Shown one piece after another: positions 4,226 to 58,846 of a stretch of 64,000 nt of DNA. How positions within the stretch are numbered: the stretch's first letter is position 1; every line of letters starts with the position of its first letter. Below the pieces are notes generated by a model. It was not told the origin of the DNA. It saw nothing but the letters and a program-made list of their open reading frames with translations, and did no database searches. The DNA is from a virus (Duplodnaviria > Heunggongvirae > Uroviricota > Caudoviricetes). The stretch covers positions 53,289-117,288 of the IMG/VR virus record IMGVR_UViG_3300025133_006513; one strand, 5' to 3'. Both the position numbers and the translations under genes were made by a program.

Positions 4226-5080
4226 AGATTCTGTCCCACAGGTCGGTGACGGCCTGTAGCAAAGCCCTTTAATTGCAAGAAACTCCTATTCGTAATACCA
4301 ATACGAAGGACAATTTGCAGCCAAACCGCAGTATGCCCTGCGGAAGGTTCAGAGACTAGGCGAAAGCCGTAGGACCCAAGCGGGTTCGAAACAGGGGCCT
4401 TGTCAAACGTACGATTGTGATGTAGGTTAGAAAAGGTTTTTCTAACGTATATCAGGAGGTTAGTTTATGTGGAGTCGCAAATTTGATCGTTGTATCGAGT
4501 GCAAGCGTGACGAAATTCCACACATGGCCAAAGGGCTGTGTGGTCGCTGCTATATGCAACAGTACGTGGCTGATAACCGCGAAACTGTTGCGAAATATAA
4601 GCGAGATTGGTATTTTGCGCATCACGAAGAGCAACTAGCTGCTCGTAAGATCACCAGAGAGCAAATACACTTTTCTGGTATGCGGGAAGCAGCTATACGT
4701 GTTGCGTATCGTAAATGTCAACGATGCGGCAGCGATCAACAACTATGTGTGCACCATAAAGATCGGAACGGTCGCGGATGCGATCAGCCCGATAACACAC
4801 TTGATAACCTGGAAGTACTATGCCGACGGTGCCATATCAATGAGCATCGTGCAGAATTAGTAGCAAGCAGGCGGCAAAGTGACACACCTAAACTAAACAA
4901 GCACGGTACGTGGAGTATCAAACATGACGCATGCACAGAGTGTGCGTCTAATTGCTACGCCCATGCAGCCAAAGGGCTGTGTACTCGATGCTATCAGCGT
5001 GCTAAGACAAGATGACATAGTCCGGACTTGCAGGTAACTGTAAGAGTGCCACCGGAAGCGGGTGGTGCGTAACATATTCG
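4226..5080 (+). mobile_element. group-I-like self-splicing intron carrying an HNH homing endonuclease ORF
   Basis: The intron interrupts the AAA+ Walker B motif. The 5' exon ends in U (..GAU) and the intron ends in G (5080), as expected for a group I intron. The 5' part (4226-4466) is ORF-free with GNRA-type hairpins (GGCGAAAGCC). Splicing restores LLMVD|EIDKAF. Confidence 0.6.
4467..5015 (+). CDS. HNH homing endonuclease (intron-encoded)
   Basis: HNH motif CVHHKDRNGRGCDQPDNTLDNLEVLCRRCHINEH. There are N- and C-terminal CxxC...CxxC zinc-finger repeats. RBS AGGAGG precedes the ATG. Confidence 0.75.
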   Translation: MWSRKFDRCIECKRDEIPHMAKGLCGRCYMQQYVADNRETVAKYKRDWYFAHHEEQLAARKITREQIHFSGMREAAIRVAYRKCQRCGSDQQLCVHHKDRNGRGCDQPDNTLDNLEVLCRRCHINEHRAELVASRRQSDTPKLNKHGTWSIKHDACTECASNCYAHAAKGLCTRCYQRAKTR

Positions 5081-5755: not shown

Positions 5756-6172
5756 GTGAGTCATATCACAAAACGTAAGTCGTCGATGAAGAACGAAGAG
5801 ACCATCAAGAAGGCCGTAGCGCGAATCAAGGGGGCTTCGTACGAAGGCCTTGGTTCGACTCGGACCTACAACAATGGTTCGATTCGTGGTCACCTTGTAC
5901 AGCTACCCGGCTGGAAATACAAACTCGCCATTGACCCCGCCACAGGGGAATGCGTGTTTGACAACTACAACGGGAGCTGGGGCAAGGACGAGCACCTCGA
6001 CGCATTGAAGCAGGGCTACGCTGTGGAAGCAGCCAAGGCTAAGGCCGAAGAAGAAGGCCACGAGTTCATCGAAGAGATGCAGGAAAACGGCTCGATCAAG
6101 TGTGTCATCCCCTTGGGCGGTGGCGGTTACGAAATGGGTGGCGACGGTGGCGGAGACGGCTACGACGTCTAA
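5756..6172 (+). CDS. hypothetical protein with Gly-rich C-terminus
   Basis: GTG start preceded by GGAGAG. The C-terminus reads PLGGGGYEMGGDGGGDGYDV. Confidence 0.5.
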   Translation: MSHITKRKSSMKNEETIKKAVARIKGASYEGLGSTRTYNNGSIRGHLVQLPGWKYKLAIDPATGECVFDNYNGSWGKDEHLDALKQGYAVEAAKAKAEEEGHEFIEEMQENGSIKCVIPLGGGGYEMGGDGGGDGYDV

Positions 6173-19825: not shown

Positions 19826-20092
19826 ATGGGGACAACGCTAGTACCCGTGCCGTGGAAGTTTCAGAATAGAAAGTGCTGCCATCACTGTAAGCTGGTTTTC
19901 CCTGTGAAGGCGACAGCCGGGTACTGCCCGCACTGCTGGCCTCGCAAATGTTTTGTTGACGTCGGCCAGTTCAGATGGATTCGTACAAGCAAGTGGTGGG
20001 AGTTTTGGGTTCGCGGTAAAGGTTACTGGCTACCCATGATGGCGCCATTCACCCGGTACGCAGATGCACCGCCGCGGCCGCCTAGTCGGTAA
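19826..20092 (+). CDS. small zinc-ribbon protein
   Basis: Strong RBS AGAAGGAGGTGAAAC. CCHHC...CPHC motifs. Confidence 0.55.
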   Translation: MGTTLVPVPWKFQNRKCCHHCKLVFPVKATAGYCPHCWPRKCFVDVGQFRWIRTSKWWEFWVRGKGYWLPMMAPFTRYADAPPRPPSR

Positions 20093-21965
20093 GTACCTCG
20101 TCGTCCCAGTCAGAGTCTTTCTGCATTGTTGCAGCCTTGAGCTGCTCCTGCGTGATCTCGTACTGGGCCATCTCTGCGAGGTTCGGCCACCGCTTACTGC
20201 GGTACCAGATGGCTGTGGCGCCAAGGTTAACCGCCTGGGCAAAGTCATCAGAGAACCCGTCCTGCCGTGTGATCCGATAGATCTCCCCGGCAGACATGGT
20301 TGTAACCTTGTCTTCTACAAGGGCCAGGAAGTCGCGGATTAATCCAGCATCCTCTTGGCTCTTGTAATCAGCGTCGAAGAACCTCATCATCCCCGTCTTG
20401 ATCATCGCACAACATAACAAGAGCGTACGGCTCTTATCCACGCGATAGTGAGACCTGGGGTGCTGCTGTGTCGGCGCGACGTGGTAACAGGGCTGCTGCG
20501 AGGCAGACCGCACGTACTGACAAGGCATACTCTCACGGGCTTTAAGCCCTGCCTGAATAAGGAATGTCTCACGCAGAGCACCGGCACCAGTGTAATCGTG
20601 AGCGAGGATCGTCGGACGGAATATGTCCCACATCTTCTTAATCTCACGAGCCTCCAACAGGTGATCGTGCGGAGTCAGCAATCGACGACCATAGATCACT
20701 TCGATCGAACCGTCTAGGCGGAGGCCAAGCAGTGCGGCAGTTGTAAAGCTGACCTTCTTCTCGCCACCACCACCCCAGTCAACACCCAACACAGTCATGC
20801 GGTACTTACCGCGGCGTGCTTTGGCATGCTTTATCGTATTAGGGCCTAGATTCGACACCTTGTCGAGTTCTGTAAGGGTAACGAGTTTGGCAGCCGTATC
20901 GTACGACTCACCAAGCACTTCGTTAAAGAACACGTTCGCCGGCGTGTTACCCTTACCGGCCTGCTTCGATAACAGTTCAGCCCACTTGTCGGGCTTGCCG
21001 TAGTGCAGAGGCATAATCACCTGCGGGACGTGGTAGCCAGCCTGCCACCAGACCCTGGCAGGGAATCGGTGGATCCAGCGGCCCATGCGAGGGCTGATGG
21101 CTTGACCGCACTTGTAACAAAGAGTCGCAGGGTGTTTCTCAGAGATATCGTCGTGGTAGGGTCCAATCATCTTCTCAAGATGGAACTCCATTGTGGGTAT
21201 ATTCCACGTGGGGTGCCCGCCCGTGGTGCAATGTAAGCACGGGATGAACCACTCAGCCTGTGAGGACTCCTGCCACAACGCTTCAAGCGTGTTGTCCAGG
21301 GTCTTAGGCGTGCCCGTGAACTGGCGGAGCGCCAGGTCAGAGGCAGACATTGTTTCACGAATGATCGGGATATGCTCATGGTTCATATCCTGGACTTCAT
21401 CGATCGCTACCTTGTCGGCCGAGATGCCGCGACAGCGATCTGCGTTGAGGAACGCGAAAGAGAACAACATTTTTGAGTTGTTGCGGAAGCTCCGATGCAG
21501 CACGGAGTTTACCGTATCTGTGCCGATCCACATGTCTTTGACAGGGGATTGGTCGATAAAGGGCTGCACAAACATGGAACTGAAGCGGCGTACCTGTTCG
21601 AACAGCGGCATCACGTAGAGCGTGGTGCGGTTAGGTAAGGCCTGTGACAGTACAACCCCGTGAGCTGCCAGCGACGTACTCTTGGATACTTGGCGACCTG
21701 TCTTGTAAACTAGAGCTGACGGCATACGAAACCGGAAGACCTCCTCAAATGGGAAGTGATCGATTAACGAATACGGTTCCCCTTTGAGGTTGAGCAAGAG
21801 AGGCAACGAATGGGCCATCGTATCTAGATTGCCCGATCGTATCATCTTGTTGTAGGCATTAATGCTATCAGATGGCGATGCGTGCTGGGCACTTCCCCGC
21901 ACAGTATTGGTAGCTGCTAGCATTGCCTCCACTAACGCCGGTTCCACTAAGACGGGATTAAGCAT
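20082..21965 (-). CDS. terminase large subunit (ATPase plus RNase-H-like nuclease); alternative GTG start at 22040
   Basis: Walker A KTGRQVSKST. Walker B VAIDEVQD. Nuclease-domain motif MTVLGVDWGGGG. GGAG RBS lies before ATG 21965. Confidence 0.8.
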   Translation of the reverse strand: MLNPVLVEPALVEAMLAATNTVRGSAQHASPSDSINAYNKMIRSGNLDTMAHSLPLLLNLKGEPYSLIDHFPFEEVFRFRMPSALVYKTGRQVSKSTSLAAHGVVLSQALPNRTTLYVMPLFEQVRRFSSMFVQPFIDQSPVKDMWIGTDTVNSVLHRSFRNNSKMLFSFAFLNADRCRGISADKVAIDEVQDMNHEHIPIIRETMSASDLALRQFTGTPKTLDNTLEALWQESSQAEWFIPCLHCTTGGHPTWNIPTMEFHLEKMIGPYHDDISEKHPATLCYKCGQAISPRMGRWIHRFPARVWWQAGYHVPQVIMPLHYGKPDKWAELLSKQAGKGNTPANVFFNEVLGESYDTAAKLVTLTELDKVSNLGPNTIKHAKARRGKYRMTVLGVDWGGGGEKKVSFTTAALLGLRLDGSIEVIYGRRLLTPHDHLLEAREIKKMWDIFRPTILAHDYTGAGALRETFLIQAGLKARESMPCQYVRSASQQPCYHVAPTQQHPRSHYRVDKSRTLLLCCAMIKTGMMRFFDADYKSQEDAGLIRDFLALVEDKVTTMSAGEIYRITRQDGFSDDFAQAVNLGATAIWYRSKRWPNLAEMAQYEITQEQLKAATMQKDSDWDDEVLTD

Positions 21966-22123
21966 GTATAACTCCGATGAGGATGAAGACTTGCAAAAGT
22001 TCGACTGGGTCGAACAACAGTGCAAGCAATTTTGGCCCACACCGGGTCATTTCTGGGCCACCGTAGTGCTAGTATGGCTAGCATATATGGTAGTCTGCTG
22101 TCTGTAGCAAGATAGCACAGGTC

Positions 22124-27818: not shown

Positions 27819-28353
27819 CGAGAACGCTCCTTTCAAAATTGCAGTACTAGAGTTGGACAATGATTTCATGAAGCTGCTGTCGCAGTTAGCGGCAGATGCA
27901 ATAACTGCTCACGAGGCGTACAGAGCGATACGTGAGCTTCAGTACACAAGTCCCAAGGTCATCCAACTTCATGGCCCGGACCTGTCCGAGTGGGTTACAC
28001 ACACCACAGGCGTGTGGGGCAGTAATTGGCATAGCGAGCTCGTCTCTCAAGGCGCCACGCTAATGCCGCTGCAGTACGCATACACACGTGCGGTATGGTC
28101 GCAAGACACCTCAAACTGCCGACTCATCGTATCTATCGCTGAGCTGCAGGACCCACAGATAAACTGGCGATTCTACTCAGAAGCCAGTGAAGAGTTTTTC
28201 ACCCAGCCACTGCCGTTGTCGAAGTATAAATTCTTCAGCAAACTGCAGATGGAAGACACCACGTTTAAGAGGGAACATGTCCTTACCCGAAGCAATCGAG
28301 AAACTACGGGACCAGATTCGCCACCACGACAAACAGTACTATGTACTGGGTGA
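27781..28353 (+). CDS. hypothetical protein (3' end overlaps the ligase start by ~77 nt)
   Basis: 190-aa ORF. Confidence 0.4.
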   Translation: MIPRIALTARSTNENAPFKIAVLELDNDFMKLLSQLAADAITAHEAYRAIRELQYTSPKVIQLHGPDLSEWVTHTTGVWGSNWHSELVSQGATLMPLQYAYTRAVWSQDTSNCRLIVSIAELQDPQINWRFYSEASEEFFTQPLPLSKYKFFSKLQMEDTTFKREHVLTRSNRETTGPDSPPRQTVLCTG

Positions 28354-30358
28354 GTCCGATATCCCCGACGTTGAGTACGACAAGTTATTCCAGCGGCTAG
28401 TGCTGATGGAAATTAATAACCCCGAGCTGGTGACGGACGACAGTCCCACCCAGCGAGTCGGGGGAGCTCCTATTGAGGGGCTAGAGTCTGTTGCACACCT
28501 GGTTCCAATGATGTCCGTCGATAACGGTTTTGATATGACCGTCCTGGACAAATTCCATGAGAGAGTTACCAAAGTACTAGGTCACGAACCGCTGTACGCT
28601 CTGGACTGGAAGATCGACGGCTGCGCAATCAGTCTCATTTATGAGGACGGTAAGCTGATACGTGCTGTATCTCGTGGTGACGGTATTATCGGGGATGACA
28701 TCACGCATAACGCTGTGTCCATCCGCGGTATTCCGTCAGAGATACTCAACCCCGTCTCTGGCGGGAAGCACGCTGGCTACAACCTGTCTGTTGACGGAAT
28801 CATCGAGGTACGCGGCGAAGCGTACATCCCTAACTCCGTCTTTCGTTCTTTGGTGGCTGCACAGGAGGCAGCTGGCGAAGAGCCTTTCAAGAATTCACGC
28901 AATGCCGCGGCGGGAGCCTTACGGCAGCGAGACCCCAAAGCATGTTACGAACGCAAGTTGTACTTCGTTGCACATGGCCTCGGGGCCTGGGCGCCAGACC
29001 TGGCGTGCACCTCTTGGCAGTGGGCCATGCTCATGCTGAATGAGCTCGGCATCCCCATGATCACCGATAGTCAGGGGGCCATGACCTACGAGCAGGCCAA
29101 ACACTCATTAAGCCTTCTCACTAAGCAGGTAGACGAGATCGACTACCCGGTGGATGGGCTCGTGCTTAAGGTTGATAACCTAGCCGATCGTGAGGCCTTA
29201 GGGTCAGCATCGTCTAAGTACGTGTCGTGGGCAATTGCCTACAAGTGGGAACGATACGAAGCTGAGACGAAGATCATACGGCTCGAGACGCAGGTGGGCA
29301 AACAGGGAACCCTGACGCCAGTTGCATACTACGAGCCCGTTGAGATAGCGGAGACAACCGTCCAGAAGTCCACGCTGTTCAACTTCGACGAGGTCAAGCG
29401 GTTGGATCCTCGCGTAGGTGACACCGTCACGCTGGAGAAGGCAGGGAAGATCATTCCTCACCTTGTCCGTGTACACAAACTCAAACGCCCCGAGAAGACA
29501 AAGAAGTTCACCCCTCCGAAGAAGTGTCCTGTCTGCAAGGGGGACACGGCTAAGGAAGGTCCGCTGGTAGTCTGCACTAACACTGCAGGGTGTCCAGCAC
29601 AGCTGGCTGCTGTTATCCGTTCGGCAGCCGATCGTACCAGAATGGATATCGATGGACTCGGGCCGTCTGCCATTGAGGCGATGATGGATGCGGGTGCTAT
29701 CACTGACTTCTCGTCGCTATGGGCTCTGGAGGCCACAGTGGGCCCGCAGGGCTGCATCCCCGGGATGACGGCTGGGAAGTCAAAGAAACTGCTGAAGGCC
29801 CTAGAAGAGGCCAAGACGCGGCCCTCGTGGCGGCTCCTGGCCTCACTCAACATCAAACACTGCGGAAGAACCGTCTCAGAGCTCGTGTGCAAGGCTGTAC
29901 ACGAGCACGCGAGGAAGGGTGAAAACAACGTGCTTGGGATGTTGGGCAACCGCTGGACGATGCAGAAGCTCCAATCCATTGAGGGTGTCGGAGCTGAGAC
30001 TGCGATCAGTATTCGAACCTGGTTCGATCGAGAGCGTAATCTCAAGTTGGTTAATAAGCTATGGAAAGCTGGCGTCAACTGCGGGCCCGCTGACCCGAAG
30101 CCAGAGGCGGCACCTACGGGCGCCCAGCCCTTCGCTGGGATGGCCATATGTGCAACCGGGAAGTTCGAGTCTTACACCCGTGAGAGTATCAGGCAAGCGA
30201 TTGTCGAACGCGGAGGTAAGGCACAGAGTAGTCTATCCAAGGGCACCAACATATTGGTGGCTGGAGACAAGGCAGGCGGGAAGTTAGATAAAGCACATCA
30301 ACTCGGCATTAAGGTCGTTGATGAGGCAGAGTTTAAGGAGTTGGCGGGTTCCGCGTGA
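28277..30358 (+). CDS. ligA: NAD-dependent DNA ligase
   Basis: GAGGG RBS. N-terminal Ia domain (YYVLGESDIPDVEYDKL). Adenylation motif WKIDG. Zinc finger CPVC...C..C. C-terminal BRCT domain. Confidence 0.85.
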   Translation: MSLPEAIEKLRDQIRHHDKQYYVLGESDIPDVEYDKLFQRLVLMEINNPELVTDDSPTQRVGGAPIEGLESVAHLVPMMSVDNGFDMTVLDKFHERVTKVLGHEPLYALDWKIDGCAISLIYEDGKLIRAVSRGDGIIGDDITHNAVSIRGIPSEILNPVSGGKHAGYNLSVDGIIEVRGEAYIPNSVFRSLVAAQEAAGEEPFKNSRNAAAGALRQRDPKACYERKLYFVAHGLGAWAPDLACTSWQWAMLMLNELGIPMITDSQGAMTYEQAKHSLSLLTKQVDEIDYPVDGLVLKVDNLADREALGSASSKYVSWAIAYKWERYEAETKIIRLETQVGKQGTLTPVAYYEPVEIAETTVQKSTLFNFDEVKRLDPRVGDTVTLEKAGKIIPHLVRVHKLKRPEKTKKFTPPKKCPVCKGDTAKEGPLVVCTNTAGCPAQLAAVIRSAADRTRMDIDGLGPSAIEAMMDAGAITDFSSLWALEATVGPQGCIPGMTAGKSKKLLKALEEAKTRPSWRLLASLNIKHCGRTVSELVCKAVHEHARKGENNVLGMLGNRWTMQKLQSIEGVGAETAISIRTWFDRERNLKLVNKLWKAGVNCGPADPKPEAAPTGAQPFAGMAICATGKFESYTRESIRQAIVERGGKAQSSLSKGTNILVAGDKAGGKLDKAHQLGIKVVDEAEFKELAGSA

Positions 30359-40535: not shown

Positions 40536-40742
40536 ATGTCGCATGACAAGGACGATAGAAGTACGTTGAAGAATCGACGGTGTTTAAGATGCCAAGAATC
40601 ATTCGAATCACTTCACGCGGGAAACCGTATTTGTCCTGTATGTGCGGCTAAGCCTGTTATGCAGGCAGGGCTACAACGTACCTACCTAGATTTTTTCTCA
40701 AGTCCATCGGAGTCGTTTTCAGATGACGAGTTTGACAGATAA
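40536..40742 (+). CDS. small zinc-ribbon protein
   Basis: CLRC...CPVC motifs. Confidence 0.5.
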   Translation: MSHDKDDRSTLKNRRCLRCQESFESLHAGNRICPVCAAKPVMQAGLQRTYLDFFSSPSESFSDDEFDR

Positions 40743-42180
40743 GGGCCCAACAGCAGAGCGTGTAGTTGTTGTTGGCCCTGTTATTACAGATAGATACTAC
40801 CTTGGTAAATCAGACCGTGTTGACCAGACGGCTGCTGTACCTATTGTGGACGTAGCCCCAGATGGCTCGTTCGCGTCCCTTGGCGGGGCTGCTAATGCTG
40901 CACGGTGCCTGGCGAGTTTAGCCATGCCTGTCGCCTTCATCAGTGCCGTTGGCGACGACCCTGCCGGGCGTGCGTTCATGGATACAGAGCTGCCAATGAT
41001 CACACGGTATGTCAAAGTGGCACCAGGCTATCAAACGCCTGTCAAGAACCGCGTGTACTCTACCGGCAACCTTGTTGCCCGGTTTGATATAGACGAGAGC
41101 CCGAAGGTCAATGTCGAAGACTACATCATCGATATGTTTCAACGATGTGTCGACGACAGCAAGCCACTGGCTATTCTTATCTCAGATTATGCCAAGGGTA
41201 TCTGCACTGAGCGGACCCTGACGCATATCATGGCGTATGCTAAGGCGAATGACGTCAAGGTGGTTGTAGATCCTACGCCGCTGCACATGCAGTTCTACCG
41301 CGGTGCCCACATTGTGACGCCTAACGCGGCTGAGTGCATGGTGGCCACAGGGCTCGAGACTGTCGGGCGTAGTGCTGCTGTTATCTGTACTGAGCTTGAG
41401 GTTGCCAGTGTTGTGGTTACCTGTGGTGCTGATGGCTTGTTTATCTCTACGGGTCCCGATGATCCACCCGAGACCATGCCTGCGGTTCCGGCTCTGCCAG
41501 TAGATACTTGTGGTGCAGGTGATGTTATCGCCGCAACACTAGCCTACGGCACAGCTGTAGATATCCCTCCTACTGCGATGTATCACATGGCGGTGGCTGC
41601 TGGGGCTATCTGTGTGGAGTTTGGCGGTGCAGGGCCTGTGTCGCTGCATCAGATCCATAAGCGTATTGCTACGGTGTTCGGTGCAGAGCGTAAACTCGTC
41701 AACGCTGATTTTACGACGTTGTTGCGTATGTCAGTCGCCATAGACGGCACTAAGTTTGGTGTAACCAACGGCATCTTCGATGTACTGCATCCTGGCCACG
41801 TGTCTATGTTACGGCAAGCCCGTGAGGCTTGTGACTTCCTTGTGGTGCTGCTCAACACAGACAGCTCTGCAGAAGGTATCGGCCGTAAGCCTGTCATGCC
41901 CCTTACGTCGCGTGCTTCACAACTGGCGGCACTTCCGTGTGTCGACGCTGTTATGGCGTTTGATGGCGCGACACCCGAGCCTGAGATCGCAAGGCTACTG
42001 CCTGACGTGCTGATTAAAGGCCCGGAGCTGAAGGGTAAAGAGAAAGAGATCCCTGGGTATGATGTTGTAGTGGATAACGGTGGCACGATTGTCATCGCAA
42101 CACTCGAGCACGATACACACGGGACCACCATCAAAGAGAAGGTAATTGAGTCGGAAGCTAGGCAAGAAGGCGAAGCGTAA
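40723..42180 (+). CDS. hldE: bifunctional D-beta-D-heptose 7-phosphate kinase / D-beta-D-heptose 1-phosphate adenylyltransferase (HldE/RfaE) homolog
   Basis: Domain I: VVVVGPVITDRYYLG...GGAANAA, ILISDYAKG, DTCGAGD (ribokinase family). Domain II: GVTNGIFDVLHPGHVSMLRQA (HxGH nucleotidyltransferase). It is collinear with E. coli HldE across both domains. Confidence 0.8.
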   Translation: MTSLTDKGPTAERVVVVGPVITDRYYLGKSDRVDQTAAVPIVDVAPDGSFASLGGAANAARCLASLAMPVAFISAVGDDPAGRAFMDTELPMITRYVKVAPGYQTPVKNRVYSTGNLVARFDIDESPKVNVEDYIIDMFQRCVDDSKPLAILISDYAKGICTERTLTHIMAYAKANDVKVVVDPTPLHMQFYRGAHIVTPNAAECMVATGLETVGRSAAVICTELEVASVVVTCGADGLFISTGPDDPPETMPAVPALPVDTCGAGDVIAATLAYGTAVDIPPTAMYHMAVAAGAICVEFGGAGPVSLHQIHKRIATVFGAERKLVNADFTTLLRMSVAIDGTKFGVTNGIFDVLHPGHVSMLRQAREACDFLVVLLNTDSSAEGIGRKPVMPLTSRASQLAALPCVDAVMAFDGATPEPEIARLLPDVLIKGPELKGKEKEIPGYDVVVDNGGTIVIATLEHDTHGTTIKEKVIESEARQEGEA

Positions 42181-45700: not shown

Positions 45701-47830
45701 ATGCTTATAACTCGTTTAACGCTGAAGAATTTCTGCCAGCACAGAGACCTTACACTCGACTTCCAGGCAGGGTTGAACATGTTGGCAGGGCCGAACGGTG
45801 CGGGTAAGACTAACATCTTACGCGGACTGCAGTTGGCCCTTATTGGTGACGCAGGTGGCGATCGGAAGAAGTCGGAAGACGTCTCCCAGGGAAAGCCGAA
45901 TGACGAACCATCGTATGTTGAGGCAGAGCTGTCGCACGGGGGCGCCACGATAGTGGTCCGCCGCGGATTGTCGCCTACAGGTAACAAGCTCACCATCGGT
46001 GGTGAGGAGTGGACGTCAGTGACGGAGATCAACGCTGAGTTGTGTCGTCGTCTTGGTGCCACGAAGAAGCAGATCGCTGATTACATCTTTGTGCGACAGC
46101 GTAAGATCGATGAGATGTTTGATCAGAAGCCTGCAGAGCGAGCTGCGTCACTTGCTGCACTCTTCGGTGTTGAGCATGCTGACAAGGTGTACAAGAAGAT
46201 GGGTGAGTTCCTCAGCTCGGTCGAAGTCCCAACGACAGCGATCGACGAGGATACCCTGATTCATGAACTGTCTTCGAAGCAGGCCATACTGTTGGGCGTG
46301 CAGGCTAAGCTTGAGGAGCTGGACATGCCTGATGACCTGCAGGCCGCGTTGGCGCAATCGCAACAGTTTATTAACGAGTACGAGCAGAAGGCGGCAGCTA
46401 GCGACGAGTACGCGCGTATCGCTGATTTGCATAACGCTAAGCAGATGGAGTTGAAGACTGCAGAGGTGCCGTTGGCAGAGTTAGATGCATCTATCGCTGA
46501 TGTAGAGTCTGCTGCGGAGCTGTTAAAGCCACTATGCGATGCCGCTGCGAAGCAGCAAGAGCAGTGGCGTGCCTATCATACGTCTGTGCAGTCACGTAAC
46601 GCTCTTGAGCGAGATCGTATTGCCCTTAAGGCTGACGTGGATGCGTTGGTGGTGCCAACTAAACCTGTGACGGTGTACACCGAAGCAGACGAATATCGAT
46701 ATGATCATTTGGTTACTCGTCGGCGTACAATCGGTACCACGTTACGTCAGCTGGAGGGTGGGCATGACTGTCACGCTTGTGGGCAGACGTTACCTGGCGC
46801 CAGTGAGCGTATTAAGCGAACTGCAGAGTTGAACGCTGAGGACGTAGAGATCGGCAGCGAGTTACCCAATCTGGTTGCACGTAGAACTGCGGCTGAGCTG
46901 TATGCAGAGGCTGACACCGCTTATAAGCTGGCGTTAGATGTATGTGATGCCACCGCAAAGCAGCTGGGTATTCGTGGTTCCGCGTTGCAATCCTTCGACG
47001 CACCAGGCACACCTGAGGAAGAACTCCAAGCCACTCTCGATGAACGGCAGGAGTTTCTCAGTGTGTTCAATGTGTTAGCTGCACGTAAGCTGGATTTAAC
47101 GGTTAAGCTCAGTGCGTTGGGTGGCGAGGTCAAGCAATTGGCCCAGTCGCGATCAGACGCCTGTGGTGTAATGAACAGCCTTGCGGATTGCGATCGGGAG
47201 GAGTACCTGGATGCACAAGAGCGTTACAGGGTGCTAACGCTGAAAGGTAAACAGCAGCAGCACATGCAGCAGCAGATAGCGATCGCTGAGGCACAGGCTA
47301 ATGCTACGCAGCGGCAGCTGGAAGACGTATGTAAAGTCAAACAGCAGGGGCAGCAGACGCGTGACGTCGTGGCACACCTGACTGAAGTACGTAACGTCTT
47401 CCACCGCACTGAAGCTCCAAAGATGGTATCGTATACCTACGTGGAGACAATGCTTGGCGAGGTCAACGAGGCACTCGACTTATTCGACGCCCCGTTCCGT
47501 GTCGAGATGGATGAGAACTTGGGCTTTACTGCTCGGTTCTTGGATGGTGTGCGGGTACAGCCCGACAGCAACCTGTCCGTTGGCGAGCGTATCTTGCTCG
47601 CGATGGCATTTAGGATCACTGTCAACTCAACCTTTGCAGGTCAAGTTGGTGTGCTGATCATGGACGAACCCACGGCAGGTTTGGACGAGAGTAACCTCGG
47701 CAACCTACCGCGGGCAATCGAACGCCTTCGTGACTTATCACACGAACGCGGACTGCAAGTACTATTTGTAACCCACGAGCCGCGAATAGCTCATCACTTC
47801 GACAACGTCATAGAACTACCCGCAGCATGA
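45701..47830 (+). CDS. Rad50/SbcC-like SMC ATPase
   Basis: Walker A GPNGAGKTN. Coiled-coil middle with CHACGQ (CxxC zinc hook). Signature/Walker B LLAMAF...LIMDEPTAGLD. Confidence 0.8.
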   Translation: MLITRLTLKNFCQHRDLTLDFQAGLNMLAGPNGAGKTNILRGLQLALIGDAGGDRKKSEDVSQGKPNDEPSYVEAELSHGGATIVVRRGLSPTGNKLTIGGEEWTSVTEINAELCRRLGATKKQIADYIFVRQRKIDEMFDQKPAERAASLAALFGVEHADKVYKKMGEFLSSVEVPTTAIDEDTLIHELSSKQAILLGVQAKLEELDMPDDLQAALAQSQQFINEYEQKAAASDEYARIADLHNAKQMELKTAEVPLAELDASIADVESAAELLKPLCDAAAKQQEQWRAYHTSVQSRNALERDRIALKADVDALVVPTKPVTVYTEADEYRYDHLVTRRRTIGTTLRQLEGGHDCHACGQTLPGASERIKRTAELNAEDVEIGSELPNLVARRTAAELYAEADTAYKLALDVCDATAKQLGIRGSALQSFDAPGTPEEELQATLDERQEFLSVFNVLAARKLDLTVKLSALGGEVKQLAQSRSDACGVMNSLADCDREEYLDAQERYRVLTLKGKQQQHMQQQIAIAEAQANATQRQLEDVCKVKQQGQQTRDVVAHLTEVRNVFHRTEAPKMVSYTYVETMLGEVNEALDLFDAPFRVEMDENLGFTARFLDGVRVQPDSNLSVGERILLAMAFRITVNSTFAGQVGVLIMDEPTAGLDESNLGNLPRAIERLRDLSHERGLQVLFVTHEPRIAHHFDNVIELPAA

Positions 47831-51864: not shown

Positions 51865-53514
51865 ATGAATCCTATGATCCCGGCCACCGAGGCCAACCCG
51901 ATGGCGGCGAGCCCAATGGTGTCGCATATACCGCCAGAGGCAGACCAGGCTGCGATGAGGCTTGATTTCCTGTTTATGCATATCGTGCAGCATCAGGGTA
52001 CGTTTGATCTTGCATATTCGCAGTTAGAGCCAGACATGCTGGCTAATAATCGTGAGATGCATTACCGGCATGTCTGGCGATGCATCAAGGCACACTGGGA
52101 TGAGTTCGGTCGCATACCTGCGTACGAATCCCTGTGCACAGCGGCACTCCCCGCCGTTGCTGAGGATAGCATCGCTAAGATGAGCAAAGCGGTCAAAGAC
52201 ATGATCATCGAGCAAACGGAGACGTTGCTTGCTTTCATGTACGCCCCTGAGCATAACGCAGAGAATCTTGAGGTAGAATTTGCTACGGCCATCTTACGCG
52301 AGCTCTTGATCGACAGAGGTCCTGAGCTTGAGATTCGTCGTGCCGTGGCGAGCGCAGCTACCAGCATGATTACTAACCTGCCAGATATTGTGCAGCGAGC
52401 CCAGAAGCGTATCGAGGACATCACGTCACTGGGTACGATACAGGAAGAGACCACTACCGTACCTAAGGTATGGGAACAGGTAGCTGTTCCTCGTGTACCT
52501 TGTGGTGTTGAATGGGTCGATACAATCATGGGCGGAGGTGCGGAGCCTGGTAACTGTATGGTCATCATGGGGCCGACAGGTGGCGGTAAAACCACAACCT
52601 CTATGCAAATCGCCGTCACAGCAGCAGCACTACAACCGATCGACCCGAACCCTGGGCTGGTTGTGTTCATTAGTTACGAAGATGACATGCGTATGATTCA
52701 GATTCGAGCCACATCGTGTGGTGCGAATGTGTTGAAGGACTCACTTCGTGATGCTAAATCAGGCGTGAGTTTCAGTTCTGTTGGGAATTTGAAGCCATAC
52801 GAACAGAGCTTGTATGGTGCAGGTATCCCGAAGCACGAGCGGCTTGGTGAGATAGAACGCATCAAGATGGCCGAGCCGTGGTTGGATAAGTACCTGCATC
52901 TGGTTGACTTTCATGATCCCGCTAAAGGTGGTCGTGGTGGTATTCCAGAGGTCAGGGCACGCCTTATGGCCCTCCAAGAGAAACATGGCCTGCCAATCAA
53001 AACAGTTGTCTTAGACTGGGCGGGTACGCTGGTAACCAACTACCTGCAAGGTATCGGTATCTCGGCGGACGGCTCCAGGATGTCGCTCGAGCTGCAAGAC
53101 CTTGTACGGAAGTGTAAGCATGAGCTGGGTATCCCTTTCGGGTGTACTGTATGGATACCGCACCAGTTGACAGGTAAGTGCAATAAAGCATCACCGTCGA
53201 CATTCCCGCATCACGCAGATGCTCAATGGTGTAGCACGTTCTCCGATCACGCGACGTATGCGTTTGTACTGGGGACTAAAGACAAAGAGCATAGTATCGT
53301 GCAATTCGGGGCCACTAAGACCCGACACGGTGAGACACCTGGCCCAATCATCCTTAAGGTGGACGGGGCATTCTGTCGTATGGTCGACGTTACCAAACAA
53401 TTCTCTGTTGATCGTATCTCTGGACGCTTGGTGCCCCAGAAAGACGCAGCAAAATTCCATGTTAGCGATGCGGCTATTGAGGCTGTATCGTCGGATGTAA
53501 ATAGTGATAGATGA
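51865..53514 (+). CDS. DnaB-like replicative helicase
   Basis: GGAGCC RBS. Walker A VIMGPTGGGKTTTSMQIA. RecA-like C-terminal domain. The primase lies immediately downstream. Confidence 0.7.
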   Translation: MNPMIPATEANPMAASPMVSHIPPEADQAAMRLDFLFMHIVQHQGTFDLAYSQLEPDMLANNREMHYRHVWRCIKAHWDEFGRIPAYESLCTAALPAVAEDSIAKMSKAVKDMIIEQTETLLAFMYAPEHNAENLEVEFATAILRELLIDRGPELEIRRAVASAATSMITNLPDIVQRAQKRIEDITSLGTIQEETTTVPKVWEQVAVPRVPCGVEWVDTIMGGGAEPGNCMVIMGPTGGGKTTTSMQIAVTAAALQPIDPNPGLVVFISYEDDMRMIQIRATSCGANVLKDSLRDAKSGVSFSSVGNLKPYEQSLYGAGIPKHERLGEIERIKMAEPWLDKYLHLVDFHDPAKGGRGGIPEVRARLMALQEKHGLPIKTVVLDWAGTLVTNYLQGIGISADGSRMSLELQDLVRKCKHELGIPFGCTVWIPHQLTGKCNKASPSTFPHHADAQWCSTFSDHATYAFVLGTKDKEHSIVQFGATKTRHGETPGPIILKVDGAFCRMVDVTKQFSVDRISGRLVPQKDAAKFHVSDAAIEAVSSDVNSDR

Positions 53515-55622
53515 ATAGCTCACAACTAACTATGGCGTCTTTGGATAATCTCGCACCGTCGCCGGTGTTGAACCCAACGCTGTACGATCGCATGGTCAAA
53601 ATGTATGGCAGCGTGATCGTAGCTAAGCAGGGTGAGGCCATGTACGGCGGTGGACTGGACTTCGATGGTATGCGTACAAGCTACAAACCGTTGACGTCTG
53701 GGGAGTACTACAGAATAAATTGTTTTGCTGGTGAAACGCTAGTAGCAACAAAGTATGGCGATAAGCCTATTTCTGCGTTAGTAGGGACGGCTGAGCTACT
53801 GGTGCCTAATGCGAAGGGGCTCGGGAGCTGGCGATCCGTAGAGGTTCGTAGTTTCGGTAAGCAGCGGCTGTTACGCTTAACTATTAAGAGACATGGTACT
53901 GTTCGAAACATTCGCGTGACTGCAGATCATCGTTGGCTGTTAAGTGGCGGTAATGGTTGTTATCAAGAAGCGACTACATCCTCACTTGTGCAGGGGGATA
54001 AGTTAGCCTCTTGTTTTGCACGCAAGCTTGTTAGTTATGGGTCACATATGCCAGCCGTGTCGCCATTTGGCGTCGCACGTGGTTTTGTGTTTGGTGACGG
54101 GAGCACCGCTACCGCTAGGCCGCAGCGCCCTGCTTGGGTGGATCTACATGGCGAGAAGGATAAAGCATTGCTACCGTTTTTCTCAATGTGTTGTGCGGTT
54201 GACGTAGGTCCGGCTGTTGTGCGTATAGGCGGGCTACCTCGACAGTGGAAATCGGTACCGTATGAAGTTGTGGATCTTACTACGCTGTGCGGCTGGCTGG
54301 CTGGTTACTTCGCTGCTGACGGGTCCGTCTCGAAGCCGGGTACGCAAGCGGTCCTCGGTTCGGCTAATCTAGAGGGATTGCAGTTTGCTCGCGGAGTGTG
54401 TTATCAGTTAGGAATTCGCATTTCTCCAGTGCGAAAGATAAAACGATCATCTAATGGCTGTGTACCTAATGCGTGTGATTTCCCGTATTACGAGTTCTCT
54501 TTTCCGGCGTCTGATGTCCCTATTGATTTTTGGATCATCGCGGAACATAGACGGCGAGTGCAAGCAGCCGTCGACCGCAATGTAAGTACGGTGCGGGCTT
54601 GGTGGACAGTTGAAGCCGTTGAGGACGACGGAGACGAGGATGAGGTGTTTTGTGCTATAGTGCCGGGTGATGAGAAATTTACACTGGCTAATAACTTACT
54701 AACACGTAACTGCCCATTCTGCCTTAAGCGGGGCGCGGTGGATACTAAGCATCGTCTGTGGATCAATCACAGGTGGGGTGTCGGGCTTGACCCCGACAAT
54801 GAGTTCTACGATCCGAACGATAAGTTCTGGTGGATGGCTGTGTGCTACAACGAGAACTGTCTGGATAACCCGGAGTATCGCAGGACGTTACGTACGTCGC
54901 TGTACGCAGGTGTTGGGCGTGAGAATCACGGGGAGGTTGTTAAAATTCTTCCCGGTAAGACAGACTCAGGAGCTCTCGGGGTGGTTGACTACCCGGGGAA
55001 CTGCCAACTGCTTAATACGCTGCCGCATGACCACAAGGCCTACCAGTACATGCTGGGCCGCGGGTTATCGCCGGAGATGCTTGGCGAGGAGTACGGTGTG
55101 GCGTATTGCCACGAGTCGCTTATGACACCGGTAGCCGCGGCTAAGATCATCATCCCCATCCACATGGACGGCAAGATGGTGAGCTGGCAGGCCCGACCGC
55201 CGTACGACATCGATTGGAAGGCTGCTCGTCAGCCAAAGTATTACAACTGCCCGGGGACCAACAAGCGACTGATGCTATACGGGGCCCAGCAGTCAATGGA
55301 TATGAAGTTCTGCATTGTTGTAGAGGGCGTGACAGATGTTTGGGCTATTGGCGCCGGTGCGGTGTCTGTGCTCGGTAAGGTCATGTCAATGCAACAAGCA
55401 GTCGTCATTAATAAGCTATGGCCTGTAGCCATACTAGTGCTCGACGCCGGCACGGCTGTCGAGAGTAATAAGATGCGTGACCTACTCACGCACGGGGGTA
55501 CACGTGTCGTCACGGTGGAGATGCCAGAGGGCTTAGACCCGGCATCCATCGATCGTGACTATCTGTTTGATTTGCTCTACGGGGCAGCTTCGACGCAAGG
55601 AGTTGATTTACTTACTTTATGA
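53511..55622 (+). CDS. DNA primase (zinc ribbon plus TOPRIM) interrupted by an intein; exteins 53511-53720 and 54711-55622
   Basis: C-extein zinc ribbon CPFC...C..C. TOPRIM motifs CIVVEGVTDVWAIG and LVLDAGTA. ATGA overlap with the DnaB-like gene. Confidence 0.7.
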   Translation: MNSSQLTMASLDNLAPSPVLNPTLYDRMVKMYGSVIVAKQGEAMYGGGLDFDGMRTSYKPLTSGEYYRINCFAGETLVATKYGDKPISALVGTAELLVPNAKGLGSWRSVEVRSFGKQRLLRLTIKRHGTVRNIRVTADHRWLLSGGNGCYQEATTSSLVQGDKLASCFARKLVSYGSHMPAVSPFGVARGFVFGDGSTATARPQRPAWVDLHGEKDKALLPFFSMCCAVDVGPAVVRIGGLPRQWKSVPYEVVDLTTLCGWLAGYFAADGSVSKPGTQAVLGSANLEGLQFARGVCYQLGIRISPVRKIKRSSNGCVPNACDFPYYEFSFPASDVPIDFWIIAEHRRRVQAAVDRNVSTVRAWWTVEAVEDDGDEDEVFCAIVPGDEKFTLANNLLTRNCPFCLKRGAVDTKHRLWINHRWGVGLDPDNEFYDPNDKFWWMAVCYNENCLDNPEYRRTLRTSLYAGVGRENHGEVVKILPGKTDSGALGVVDYPGNCQLLNTLPHDHKAYQYMLGRGLSPEMLGEEYGVAYCHESLMTPVAAAKIIIPIHMDGKMVSWQARPPYDIDWKAARQPKYYNCPGTNKRLMLYGAQQSMDMKFCIVVEGVTDVWAIGAGAVSVLGKVMSMQQAVVINKLWPVAILVLDAGTAVESNKMRDLLTHGGTRVVTVEMPEGLDPASIDRDYLFDLLYGAASTQGVDLLTL
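53721..54710 (+). mobile_element. intein (330 aa) with LAGLIDADG homing endonuclease domain
   Basis: Block A CFAGETLV. Block B TADHRWLL. LAGLIDADG-type LAGYFAADGS. Blocks F/G VFCAIVPGDEKFTLANNLLTRN followed by the +1 Cys of CPFC. Confidence 0.7.
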
Positions 55623-58600
55623 TTACTGACCTCAACCGCGATGACCTGGAGGCAATCTTCCGGGGCGATGAGAAGAACTCGCATACGGAAACGTATCCGA
55701 TGTATCCGCTGACGGCTCCCGGTATGCCGCCAGCTGGTGTGAACTTTATTGCACACGCTCGCCACCTTGGAGACGAGGAGCCGTATTTAATTGAAGGCAA
55801 AGGTAAAGATAAGAAGGTGCTTTCTGCGGGCTTTCATTTGCAGTGCTTATACTTGCGATGCCTGTACAGTAGTGATTTTGATCTGCCCATTAAACTAAAG
55901 GGTAAGACGGAGGTGGTACGTATCGTACCTGGTCGTTTGTGGGGTATGCCGCCTGAGGGCCCTAAACATCTAAGCGACAAGTATTGTGCAGAGTTCAACG
56001 CTAAGCGTGTTATGGTTGTGGGCAAGATACCTACGACGGAGGAGGTCGCGACAGGACGTACGTTGTCGGGCCCTGCGGGACGGCAGCTACGTGAGACGCT
56101 TGAGTCCCTCGGGATGACAGACTCTGAGTTGAATGACTGGTATGTGTGTAATCTGGTGCGATGGCAGAACCTCAACCCCAACAGCTCTGCGTTAGCGCAG
56201 GCGTGGGTTAAGGATTGTCTGCCACTGCTTCACCAAGAGATGCGGCTCTGTGCCCCTGACTTCATTCTGTGTCTGGGTGCTGAGGCTACAAAGGCTGTCT
56301 GTGGGCCTGCTAATTCGGTCAACAACATGATCGGCAGGTACATCGAGAAAGAGATACCGCTCCAGTTGAATGCCGACGAGGAGCCGGAGATACACACAGC
56401 CAAGGTTATGGCTGTCATGAATCCTAGTGCAGTCCTTCGAACTACTGAGCTCTACCCCCAGTTTGAAGCCACACTTCGCAACTTCGTGAAGCTGGTTAAT
56501 GGGGAAGAGTTTGCGACAAGCTCGGACGAGACGATTACGATTCAGTACATATACAAAGAAAGGGACTTGGCAGAGCTGGTGGATCACATCATCGCGCAGC
56601 CAGGCCTCAAGAAGATCGGCGTTGATGGTGAGTGGCATGGTCAGCATCCTGGTGAGCCAGGGTCATACTTACGGACTATCCAGATCAGCCATCACGGCGA
56701 GTTTGCTGCTGTCATTGTGTTGACGGCACAAGGGGGCGAGACAGCATTCGCACCTAACAAAGAACGAGCCATCCACCATCTCAATCGATTACTCGATCGG
56801 GATGATGTGCAGATTGGCGGTAGCTTCTTTTCCGCAGATCTCCCTTGGTTGGAGTACAACGGTTTGCATATTGCACACCGGTTCTGTGTTCCACCGAACG
56901 TGGAGGATATCCGCGGCGGTAACTACGCTGGCGGGTTTGATGTGGCTCTGGCCCATCACGCCTACAATGAGACCGGTGACTTCAAGCTGGAGGTCATGGG
57001 TACCCGCCTATGCGGTGCTGACCGCTGGGACGTTAAGCTGCAGGAGTGGAAGCGAGATTACCTGCATAAGCATAAGATGAAGGATGAAGAGCTTGAGGGC
57101 TACGGAGAGTGCCCAGAGGAAGTTCTTCTACCCTATGGCGGTAAGGATGCCGCGTATACGCGACAGCTCATGGACAAACACTGTGAGCTACTCGACGCGG
57201 ATAAGCATGGTAACGATTGCTGGGTTCCGTTCCACCTGTCCATGATGGCCTTCCCGGCTTTCAATGAGATGGGTACGACAGGGGTCAAGATCGACCTGGA
57301 ACGTATCGATACGTTGACCGACTTATTCCAAGAGATACGTGAAGAACGACTCGCTGAGCTACGTCAAGCGATCAACTGGCCAGGGTTCAACCCTCGCAGT
57401 AGTCAGCAGTGCGTGGAGTTCCTATTTGGAGCCCAGTACTCGACAAAGATCGATAAAGACGGCGAGCGAGTCAGCGTGGCACCTGAGGGAGCGACAACGC
57501 TCGACTTACAGCCAATTAAATCCACGGGTAAAGGAAAGCCCTGGGGTTGGGTACTGTCCCGCAACGAGCAGGATAAGTACTCACCGTCTACTGACAAGGA
57601 AGTTTGTGGGATCTTAGGAGCCCGCCACCCACTAGCACGTTCATTGCGAGACGTACGGCTAATTGACCAAGTCCTTAAGTCTGTATTCCGCCCACCAGTC
57701 ATGACCAAAACAGAAGGTCCTGAGCTGACAAAGGATGGTTACAGAATATACAAGGGCGGCATAGCCAAGTACTGTTGCTATGACTTCAGAGTCCGAAGTA
57801 CCTTCCAGCAAGTGAAGGAGACCGGCCGTGCTTCATCAGCTCGCCCACCGTTGCAGAATATCAGCAAACGTCGCGAAGACGACTACGCTAGAATTCTGGG
57901 CAGCAGATACATGTGCCCCATCAGATCTTTTATCGTGAGTAATACCGACACCGAATACGGCGAACCGACTGTGCTACTTGAAGCAGATTATAAAGGTGCT
58001 GAGCTACTCGGTATGGCTGTTATGTCACGTGACGAGACTATGTTGGATCACTGTACGCGAGCTAACTTATCGGATGATGATCCGAACCAATATGACATCC
58101 ACTCAAACATAGCTGTACAAGCTTTTCGCCTGGACTGTGCTCCCAACAAGAAGGGGCTCAGTGCCATCGGAAAGAAAGGCATGAGAGTGGCTGCAAAGAA
58201 TATTATCTTTGGTGTGGGTTACGGTCGCACAGCAGAAGCATGTGCCCGTCAATGCCAAGAAGAAGGAGCCCATATTTCAGAGGCAGAGGCGCAGGTGATT
58301 ATCAATACGATTTTCGCTACGTACCCAGGGATCCCAGCGCTTCAAGAAGCGTTGAGGGCCCGGGTGCATTCGCCTGGGTGGATTCGAAATTGTTTTGGAC
58401 GACTACGACGCTGTATTCGTACGGCGGATAGGGCTGCGATGGGAGAGCTGGAGCGACAGTTCCTGAACTTCCCTTTCCAGTCCATGGTGGCAGACGCGGT
58501 GAGTATCGCGTTGTTCCACCTATATAATCATCCTCGGAAAGCAGAACTGGGGTATCGCATAGTGTTGCAAATTCATGACGCTGTAGTCCTCGAGGTACCC

Positions 58601-58846
58601 TTGCGGAGCGTGGCGGAGGTAGCGGATATTGTACTTCCAAGTTGTATGGTTCAAAAAGTGTCTTTCAGGTCATGCGATTGGGACGGGGTTCCGTATAGTG
58701 ACTCACCCACGTACCGATTTGGTATCGACATGGACCTAGCGACCAGGTGGGGTGTGACCCCTACCTGGGATGAATGTGACGAGATGGGTATCGACAGGAA
58801 GTTCGGGAAGCCACCTAAGGCTGCGAAGATTCTTGTAAGTAGTTAG
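55619..58846 (+). CDS. family A DNA polymerase with N-terminal UDG family-4-like domain and 3'-5' exonuclease domain
   Basis: UDG-like VVGKIPTTEEVATGRTLSGPAGRQL...YVCNLVRW. Pol motif A DYKGAELLGMA. Motif B RVAAKNIIFGVGYG. Motif C QIHDAVVLEV. Confidence 0.85.
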   Translation: MITDLNRDDLEAIFRGDEKNSHTETYPMYPLTAPGMPPAGVNFIAHARHLGDEEPYLIEGKGKDKKVLSAGFHLQCLYLRCLYSSDFDLPIKLKGKTEVVRIVPGRLWGMPPEGPKHLSDKYCAEFNAKRVMVVGKIPTTEEVATGRTLSGPAGRQLRETLESLGMTDSELNDWYVCNLVRWQNLNPNSSALAQAWVKDCLPLLHQEMRLCAPDFILCLGAEATKAVCGPANSVNNMIGRYIEKEIPLQLNADEEPEIHTAKVMAVMNPSAVLRTTELYPQFEATLRNFVKLVNGEEFATSSDETITIQYIYKERDLAELVDHIIAQPGLKKIGVDGEWHGQHPGEPGSYLRTIQISHHGEFAAVIVLTAQGGETAFAPNKERAIHHLNRLLDRDDVQIGGSFFSADLPWLEYNGLHIAHRFCVPPNVEDIRGGNYAGGFDVALAHHAYNETGDFKLEVMGTRLCGADRWDVKLQEWKRDYLHKHKMKDEELEGYGECPEEVLLPYGGKDAAYTRQLMDKHCELLDADKHGNDCWVPFHLSMMAFPAFNEMGTTGVKIDLERIDTLTDLFQEIREERLAELRQAINWPGFNPRSSQQCVEFLFGAQYSTKIDKDGERVSVAPEGATTLDLQPIKSTGKGKPWGWVLSRNEQDKYSPSTDKEVCGILGARHPLARSLRDVRLIDQVLKSVFRPPVMTKTEGPELTKDGYRIYKGGIAKYCCYDFRVRSTFQQVKETGRASSARPPLQNISKRREDDYARILGSRYMCPIRSFIVSNTDTEYGEPTVLLEADYKGAELLGMAVMSRDETMLDHCTRANLSDDDPNQYDIHSNIAVQAFRLDCAPNKKGLSAIGKKGMRVAAKNIIFGVGYGRTAEACARQCQEEGAHISEAEAQVIINTIFATYPGIPALQEALRARVHSPGWIRNCFGRLRRCIRTADRAAMGELERQFLNFPFQSMVADAVSIALFHLYNHPRKAELGYRIVLQIHDAVVLEVPLRSVAEVADIVLPSCMVQKVSFRSCDWDGVPYSDSPTYRFGIDMDLATRWGVTPTWDECDEMGIDRKFGKPPKAAKILVSS

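Follow-up and report, generated by a model that had tools for sequence, protein, structure and literature searches.

A LAGLIDADG endonuclease-containing putative intein placed directly before the first zinc-ribbon cysteine of a predicted DnaG-type phage primase

Background

Inteins usually have histidines at positions G:6 and F:13, of which that at G:6 is common without being obligatory, and class 1 inteins usually carry an aspartate at F:4. In class 1 inteins of mycobacteriophages, the histidine that precedes the terminal asparagine is often replaced by Gly, Lys or Ser (PMC5050341). One of these is the Bethlehem RDF intein, regarded as class 1 and shown experimentally to splice (Kelley et al. 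2016, PMC5050341); changing its penultimate Gly to His resulted in more precursor accumulation (PMC5050341). The AceL NrdHF intein splices fast without both histidines (PMC7891396). In class 3 inteins the +1 residue is almost always Ser or Thr (PMC5222942), and binding of zinc to the F:4 cysteine of one of them, Msm DnaBi1, blocks splicing (PMC7360933). Here we describe a putative intein that interrupts the gene of a predicted DnaG-type primase of a tailed phage (Caudoviricetes). The gene lies in a stretch of 64,000 nucleotides, positions 53,289 to 117,288 of the IMG/VR virus record IMGVR_UViG_3300025133_006513, which is referred to below as the window and whose own numbering is used throughout. 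An earlier note, based on the letters of this DNA and a list of its open reading frames, had proposed the intein; the present analysis follows up that proposal.

Results

An insertion in a primase gene

The open reading frame (ORF) in question is unbroken across 2.1 kb. The distinguished parts of this ORF are as follows.

53511-55622, plus strand: primase precursor ORF, 703 amino acids (aa), from the ORF list and its translation
53511-53720, plus strand: N-extein, primase residues 1-70, with the C-terminal end ...GEYYRIN; aligns with the N-termini of intein-free homologs
53721-54710, plus strand: predicted intein of 330 aa, in which a LAGLIDADG homing endonuclease interrupts the HINT splicing domain
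54711-54860, plus strand: start of the C-extein, with the zinc ribbon C401-P-F-C404 ... C445-YNEN-C450
54861-55622, plus strand: remainder of the C-extein, a DnaG-type RNA-polymerase/TOPRIM domain according to matches with TIGR01391 dnaG and with DnaG structures in PDB
55323-55325, plus strand: TOPRIM residue E605, from a motif check
55443-55451, plus strand: TOPRIM residues D645-A-G647, from the same check
55536-55538, plus strand: TOPRIM residue D676, from the same check

The insert comprises residues 71-400 of the precursor, i.e. 990 nucleotides or exactly 330 codons, and is in frame. When residues 1-70 were joined to residues 401-703 and the resulting 373-aa sequence was used to search a protein database, 150 proteins were matched, with E-values down to 7e-161. 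The best 120 of these 150 share at most 62% identity with the query over 94-99% of its length; nearly all are 340-430 aa long (a few are shorter fragments) and all are too short to accommodate the insert. Alignment of the full ORF with 26 homologs left the 330 residues as a single clean gap, and all 26 read GEYYR[VI]-[N/C]-CPFC without interruption over the junction. In IMG/VR, 80 related loci were identified by a scan, and the junction motif GE.Y...C..C was readable from the DNA in 59 of them; each of these 59 junctions is free of an insert. Two loci (L030 and L035) were considered as intein remnants, having tblastn matches that started upstream of query residue 400, and were rejected when their ORFs proved to be plain intein-free primases. 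Comparison with intein-free primases shows that the segment at 53721-54710 is an insertion with exact boundaries, as the earlier note had proposed; a domain that is contiguous in homologs, which the note had named as a refutation, is excluded.

The predicted functions of the flanking parts were assigned with an extein profile made from the intein-free homologs. This profile matched the RNA-polymerase domains of DnaG proteins in PDB (S. aureus, 2.6e-20; Aquifex, 4e-19; E. coli, 2.5e-12) and the T4 gp61 primase (3.7e-9, in a match that spans the zinc ribbon), and the exteins were also recognized by PHROG 47 'DNA primase' (1.4e-23) and TIGR01391 dnaG (E=2.3e-9). These matches support the assignment of the exteins to a DnaG/T4-gp61-type primase, predicted to measure 373 aa after removal of the intein, and agree with the original suggestion that the flanks rebuild a DnaG-like enzyme.

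The four zinc-ribbon cysteines, C401, C404, C445 and C450 (CxxC...CxxxxC), are invariant in 27 aligned sequences. The codon of Cys401 (TGC, 54711-54713) directly follows the insert, which makes this residue both the +1 residue and the first cysteine of CPFC. Since the GSNYRTNCPFH stretch of the zinc-binding domain of Aquifex DnaG is aligned by GEyYrvnCpfC of the profile, so that Cys401 falls on the first cysteine of the Aquifex NCPFH motif, this residue is predicted by homology to be the first zinc ligand. The proposed double role of the +1 nucleophile is borne out to that extent. The TOPRIM part of the proposal held for the glutamate (E605) and not for the canonical DxD, which in this protein reads D645-A-G647. 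Among 103 homologs, the same position is DxG in seven and DxE in seven, so DxG appears to be a recurrent variant; all seven DxG homologs are without an intein.

Identity of the insert

The insert was recognized by Pfam LAGLIDADG_3 (PF14528; E=1.3e-5, 25.8 bits against a gathering score of 22.5), while Pfam Intein_splicing (17.6 bits, cut-off 35.8) and TIGR01445 for the intein N-terminal region (E=0.026) scored under their cut-offs. With the insert plus Cys+1 as a query, 114 homologs were found at E<=1e-3 (best 1.9e-78, identity 30-50%, mostly full length), and complete intein boundaries could be distinguished in 65 of them; such matches are well outside what chance would give. A single-sequence phmmer search of PDB gave chance matches only, and a family profile was therefore needed for this comparison. 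The profile reached PI-PfuI, the Ssp DnaB mini-intein, DnaE and Npu DnaB. An AlphaFold (AF2) model built on the family alignment had a predicted local distance difference test score (pLDDT) of 89.6 and a predicted template-modelling score (pTM) of 0.86. Its best Foldseek matches in PDB were TliVMA (2.7e-12), PI-SceI, PI-PfuI (template-modelling (TM) score 0.70), PhoVMA and PI-TkoII, and other matches included free LAGLIDADG enzymes (I-DmoI), the endonuclease domain of PI-PfuI, and the Ssp DnaB and DnaE mini-inteins. The profile searches, the conservation within the 66-sequence family alignment described below and the resemblance of the model to inteins with a homing endonuclease agree with one another; together they confirm the predicted identity of the insert, i.e. 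an intein that contains a LAGLIDADG endonuclease with two motifs.

The motifs distinguished within the insert are given below.

53721-53744, plus strand: block A, CFAGETLV; Cys1 is precursor codon 71 (TGT, 53721-53723) and the presumed first nucleophile
53919-53936, plus strand: block B, T67-A-D-H70-R-W72 (Thr B:7, His B:10, Trp B:12), in which T67, H70 and W72 are invariant
54081-54101, plus strand: first LAGLIDADG motif, GFVFGDG, intein residues 121-127, with the catalytic-type Asp126
54297-54323, plus strand: second LAGLIDADG motif, LAGYFAADG, with Asp200, in the Pfam LAGLIDADG_3 match
54642-54689, plus strand: block F, EVFCAIVPGDEKFTLA, which contains EVFCAIVP; Cys311 (TGT, 54651-54653) is at F:4
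54702-54710, plus strand: end of block G, Thr328 (G:5), Arg329 (G:6) and the presumed cyclizing Asn330 (G:7), encoded by ACA CGT AAC

The strings from which the intein had first been recognized (CFAGETLV, TADHRW, LAGYFAADG and LLTRN followed by Cys) are all present in the DNA and in its translation where they had been placed. The LAGLIDADG motif quoted at that time is real; the count was incomplete, since another motif, GFVFGDG, precedes it.

Conservation was assessed in a family alignment of 66 sequences and also in a 21-sequence subset. Cys1, Trp72 and Cys311 are kept in all 66 family members, Asn330 and Cys+1 in 65, and Thr328 in 56; Cys1 is also kept in all nine same-site primase alleles listed. 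In the endonuclease, G121, G125, D126 and G127 of the first motif and G195, Y196, A198, A199, D200 and G201 of the second are invariant or nearly so in the family alignments. The two motifs, GFVFGD126G and LAGYFAAD200G, with an acidic residue at the end of each LAGLIDADG helix, correspond to a monomeric homing endonuclease of the two-motif kind. Profile alignment with the Ssp DnaB mini-intein set TaeHrW on TANHRF and veevfCavVp on VEEVFDLTVP, and on this basis Trp72 was assigned to B:12 and Cys311 to F:4. Position F:13 appears to be Glu, as aligned to PHNF of Ssp DnaB and in our own numbering. The intein hallmarks Cys1, TxxH, C-terminal Asn and Cys+1 are all present, as is a Trp(B:12)-Cys(F:4)-Thr(G:5) triplet (WCT) formed by W72, C311 and T328, and every residue needed for splicing and endonuclease catalysis is conserved in the intein of the window.

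Across the family, Gly most often precedes the terminal Asn, and Met, Arg, His and Ser also occur there. Among the primase alleles this residue is Met in seven, Arg in the window, P0237 and P0242, and His in L001; Arg was also found in family members P0148, P0161 and P0203. This position had been singled out as atypical, and Arg is indeed unusual when set against the general intein consensus, but inside this intein family it represents ordinary variation. Judged from the alignments, a residue other than His before the terminal Asn and a Cys at F:4 are family traits, not defects.

Distribution of the family and same-site alleles

When the 703-aa ORF in full served as the query of an exhaustive search, 767 proteins were returned at E<=1e-30, primase and intein matches being counted together. 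In a one-genome-per-species scan, 240 intein-family loci were confirmed. The best 80 of these 240 are overwhelmingly from Actinomycetota (Actinoplanes, Nocardia, Amycolatopsis, Modestobacter, Blastococcus, Streptomyces and Mycolicibacterium), and the remainder of the best 80 come from a few Competibacteraceae, Salinibacter and Rhodoferax. According to Pfam labels, the host proteins comprise RtcB, ribonucleotide reductase (RNR), peptidase M15, terminase, DEAD helicases and zf-CHC2 primases, and extein motifs suggest further hosts among PAPS-reductase-like proteins, DNA methylases and small zinc-ribbon proteins. None of the 65 family exteins compared is homologous to the primase of the window.

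Two side observations concern the family as a whole. The +1 cysteine often stands in a Cys-rich or metal-site motif, e.g. N/CHHNY in RtcB, N/CFGCG in zf-CHC2 proteins and N/CPFCGSG in small zinc-ribbon proteins (the slash marks the junction), and some family junctions can be read as PAPS-reductase-like (GCxF/CPFQR, NN/CGGxC). In addition, P0181, P0185, P0187, P0189, P0191, P0217 and others are free-standing actinomycete proteins of about 320-360 aa that are homologous to the whole intein and annotated as LAGLIDADG endonucleases. They are almost devoid of exteins, no longer have Cys1, the Asn-Cys end or both, and may represent inteins that have decayed or been domesticated.

Besides that of the window, at least nine primases from metagenomes were found to be interrupted by an intein at this site. 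In P0235-P0240 (682-716 aa), the match to the ORF of the window runs without a break through N-extein, intein and C-extein, while P0241 and P0244 are fragments of primase genes with an intein at this site. P0242 (531 aa) carries a mini-intein of 149 aa, from which the endonuclease domain is deleted and in which Cys1, TxxHxW, the F:4 Cys and T-R-N/C are kept. A further candidate, L002 (the contig of P0123, with a 50% identical intein fragment), was rejected as the same locus because its context is a different, Mu-like one and the gene is not this primase.

The allele L001 (ENA ERZ25039534 contig_69168, 222,672 bp) is syntenic with the window, its genes encoding, in this order, a ResIII helicase, a DnaB-like helicase, the primase and a uracil-DNA-glycosylase (UDG)-PolA fusion. 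Its intein site reads GEYYRVN/CAGGETMVAT...ILTHN/CPYC. This intein copy contains two single-base frameshifts about 820 nucleotides apart (L001 positions 4980-4995 and 5808-5820), the first in a stretch of six G where seven would be required and the second near 'cacaaagac'. Both exteins are in one frame, no stop codon interrupts the shifted frame for about 290 codons, and the gene reads through after the two corrections. The frameshifts could be sequencing errors, or a very recent change or decay.

Among eight full-length alleles, the inteins share 44-58% identity with each other, compared with 26-38% for the exteins, and the exteins closest to those of the window (62% identity; best 120 of 150 matches) are without an intein. 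Because the inteins are more alike than the exteins and the closest exteins are empty, the histories of intein and host are decoupled, as expected if homing occurs between diverged phages. Together with the mini-intein, this pattern points to the usual life cycle of inteins, i.e. invasion, loss of the endonuclease and decay.

Genomic context

The primase precursor gene is embedded between other predicted replication genes. The stop codon of the upstream DnaB-like helicase gene is overlapped by the primase ATG (ATGA, 53511-53514), and the primase stop codon in turn overlaps the ATG of a gene for a UDG-exonuclease-PolA fusion (ATGA, 55619-55622). These overlaps at both joints suggest that the helicase, primase and polymerase genes form one tightly packed replication unit. 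The predicted polymerase (55619-58846, 1075 aa) unites a uracil-DNA-glycosylase-superfamily domain with a 3'-5' exonuclease and a family A polymerase in a single fusion protein; its relatives measure 1155 aa in L035 and, as called, 1204 aa in L001. The helicase-primase-polymerase gene order is also found in L001, L030 and L035.

Several other large genes mark the phage as a large one.

20082-22040, minus strand: large gene
28187-30358: large gene
40723-42180: large gene
45701-47830: large gene

A GpA-type terminase, a NAD-dependent DNA ligase with BRCT, a PfkB fusion and an SbcC/SMC-like ATPase were distinguished in the window, which points to a large phage genome. The PfkB fusion joins a PfkB kinase to a cytidylyltransferase-like domain and was read as HldE-like. 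Relatives of this phage are found on contigs of 190-230 kb. Among the INPHARED phages, megablast and tblastn searches with the ORF revealed no relative of the phage, and the sole match to the ORF was a weak similarity of the intein to the RNR gene of Thermobifida phage P318. No second intein of the same family was found in the window, nor in Pfam scans of 10 large ORFs.

The AT skew within the intein (53750-54500) ranges from -0.11 to -0.25, compared with about 0 in both exteins and the neighbouring genes, and the GC content of the intein is close to that of its surroundings. The dip in AT skew hints weakly, on compositional grounds, that the intein is of foreign origin.

Discussion

Proposed splicing and homing

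We consider it likely that the primase precursor carries a bifunctional intein that splices by the class 1 route; splicing itself, the pathway used and the endonuclease activity are inferred. Cys1 would undergo an N-to-S acyl shift, helped by Thr67 and His70 of block B, and the thioester would be handed to Cys+1 (C401) to give a branched intermediate. Cyclization of Asn330 would then free the intein, and an S-to-N shift would leave the exteins joined seamlessly at ...YYRIN-CPFC..., producing the 373-aa DnaG-type primase. In this scheme, Cys401 would become available as the first of the four zinc-ribbon ligands only once splicing is done. The endonuclease would cut intein-free primase alleles in co-infection, at the conserved coding sequence of GEYYRVN/CPFC (intein-free site: TACTACAGAATAAAT and TGCCCATTCTGC on the two sides of the insertion point), and repair would copy the intein into the cut allele. 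Homing of this kind would explain the patchy spread of the intein among distant primases.

Several features weigh against this reading. The triplet Trp(B:12)-Cys(F:4)-Thr(G:5), invariant or nearly so in the family, has been published as the signature of class 3 (PMC2807308), and Cys311 could replace or join Cys1 as nucleophile. Neither of the two histidines that normally help Asn to cyclize is present, with Arg at G:6 and apparently Glu at F:13. The single syntenic copy readable at the DNA level, that of L001, is frameshifted twice, which could mean decay. Finally, given DxG in place of DxD, full primase activity is not guaranteed.

The first of these features leads to an alternative in which the element is a true intein that follows a class 3-type or hybrid route: Cys311 would attack the N-terminal junction or relay the acyl group from Cys1, and a branched thioester at block F would form before the N-extein is passed to Cys+1. 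Apart from the near-complete conservation of the triplet (Trp B:12 and Cys F:4 in 66/66, Thr G:5 in 56/66; PMC2807308, PMC3196547, PMC7891396), it counts in favour of this route that Tori et al. left three WCT inteins with Ser1 or Cys1 as open cases (PMC2807308) and that in later papers an N-terminal nucleophile is not 'required' in class 3 (PMC5222942). We nevertheless regard this route as unlikely. All 66 aligned members have Cys1, and their block B is of the class 1 TxxH type, whereas class 3 inteins are without a conserved B:7 (PMC7891396), and a Cys at +1 is rare in them (PMC5222942). Moreover, a Cys at F:4 has been described in some class 1 inteins (PMC3196547, PMC4031507), and the Bethlehem RDF intein, which splices, has the same signature save for B:12. 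The family profile reached class 1 inteins only and no class 3 structure in PDB up to E=10. A direct run of the family hidden Markov model (HMM) on the Bethlehem inteins with filters off did not discriminate between the classes (class 3 gp11 (MP-Be), 4.8 bits; class 1 gp52, 4.6 bits).

The remaining features would fit an intein that is splicing-dead or impaired, the primase gene being a pseudogene or giving cleavage products only while the phage uses another primase. The replaced histidines, the DxG and the two frameshifts of L001 can all be cited for it, yet we find it improbable, since the ORF is whole over 2.1 kb and the nucleophiles and block B residues are all conserved. The same Arg occurs in P0237, P0242, P0148, P0161 and P0203, and AceL NrdHF is an intein that splices fast without both histidines (PMC7891396). 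DxG is likewise found in seven intein-free homologs, and in L001 the run of six G and the open shifted frame of about 290 codons look like sequencing error or very recent change. It is barely conceivable that there is no intein at all, and that the insert is a lineage-specific domain or a free-standing endonuclease gene fused to the primase by a mis-called ORF. Such a reading could draw on the scores of Pfam Intein_splicing and TIGR01445 under their cut-offs and on the free-standing actinomycete relatives without C1 and the Asn-Cys end. It is contradicted by the exact boundaries with Cys1 and Asn-Cys+1, by the HINT fold that wraps the endonuclease, by the occurrence of the same element between unrelated host proteins in 65 cases and by the mini-intein derivative at the same primase site.

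Possible gating and significance

With class 1 splicing as the preferred reading, the position of the intein invites a further, rather doubtful idea: the intein could act as a zinc- or redox-gated switch on phage replication and/or use Cys311 as an acyl relay, which would make the family a natural class 1/class 3 hybrid. Three active-site cysteines would be involved (Cys1, Cys311 at F:4 and Cys+1), and the nucleophiles of the precursor could be tied up by trapped Zn2+ or in a disulfide, stalling splicing until conditions change. As all four zinc ligands, including the +1 nucleophile, lie in the C-extein, we speculate that zinc or oxidation could delay splicing.

The intein of the window is an unremarkable, well-conserved representative of a family that is very common; it would not surprise a specialist and leaves the current understanding of inteins unchanged. 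Two aspects look new. The insertion point before zinc ligand 1 in this primase family appears to be known only from unannotated metagenomic sequences, and no description of it was found in the searchable literature; the site adds an insertion point to those of known primase inteins. The other aspect is the size of the family that joins Cys1 with a WCT-like triplet. This family provides a large natural sample in which that combination, a variable residue before the terminal Asn and frequent placement in Cys-rich or metal sites occur together, and it may be useful for testing the role of F:4 Cys in class 1 inteins and metal or redox gating of splicing. For annotation, gene callers and Pfam give a 703-aa 'hypothetical protein' with a weak LAGLIDADG match, while the real product would be a 373-aa primase plus a mobile endonuclease. 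The natural 149-aa mini-intein of P0242 may interest protein engineers.

Comparison with known inteins

In overall architecture, the intein resembles PI-SceI, PI-PfuI and the Tli and Pho VMA inteins, which likewise combine a HINT domain with a two-motif LAGLIDADG endonuclease (Foldseek E from 2.7e-12 to 1e-8, TM score at most 0.70). These inteins share only 10-15% identity with it and are larger (360-540 aa); some possess additional regions for DNA recognition, and their terminal Asn is preceded by His.

The class 3 inteins (MP-Be 'DnaB' and Msm/Mch DnaB1; PMC2807308, PMC6195587, PMC7664689) likewise possess the WCT triplet, and their association with phages and Actinomycetota and their ILT-x-N block G ending resemble the family described here. 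They differ in having Pro or Ala at position 1 and no conserved Thr B:7, whereas the family of the window has an invariant Cys1, TxxH and Cys+1.

Inteins are also found in other primase-type proteins. Those of the TOPRIM/primases of cluster A1 mycobacteriophages (PMC5050341) belong to other primase families. The inteins of zf-CHC2 DnaG proteins (P0202, P0206, P0227 and P0230) are members of the same intein family and are also inserted directly before a zinc-ligand Cys (...N/CFGCG), but in another primase family and before the third zinc ligand, as opposed to the first in the primase of the window.

The Bethlehem RDF intein (gp51/gp52 phosphoesterase) is a further close parallel. Its sequence in AY500153 (317 aa, CSWTN...TANHRV...GEVWCLRVP...HLTGN/S) has G316 and N317 as published. 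Like the intein of the window, it is a phage-borne LAGLIDADG intein of about 320-330 aa with Cys1, TxxH, Cys at F:4 (GEVWCLRVP compared with DEVFCAIVP), Thr at G:5, a residue other than His at G:6 and a terminal Asn. It resides at another site in another host protein, is too distant for the family HMM (4.6 bits), and has Val at B:12, Ser at +1 and Gly before the terminal Asn, where the intein of the window has Trp, Cys and Arg, respectively.

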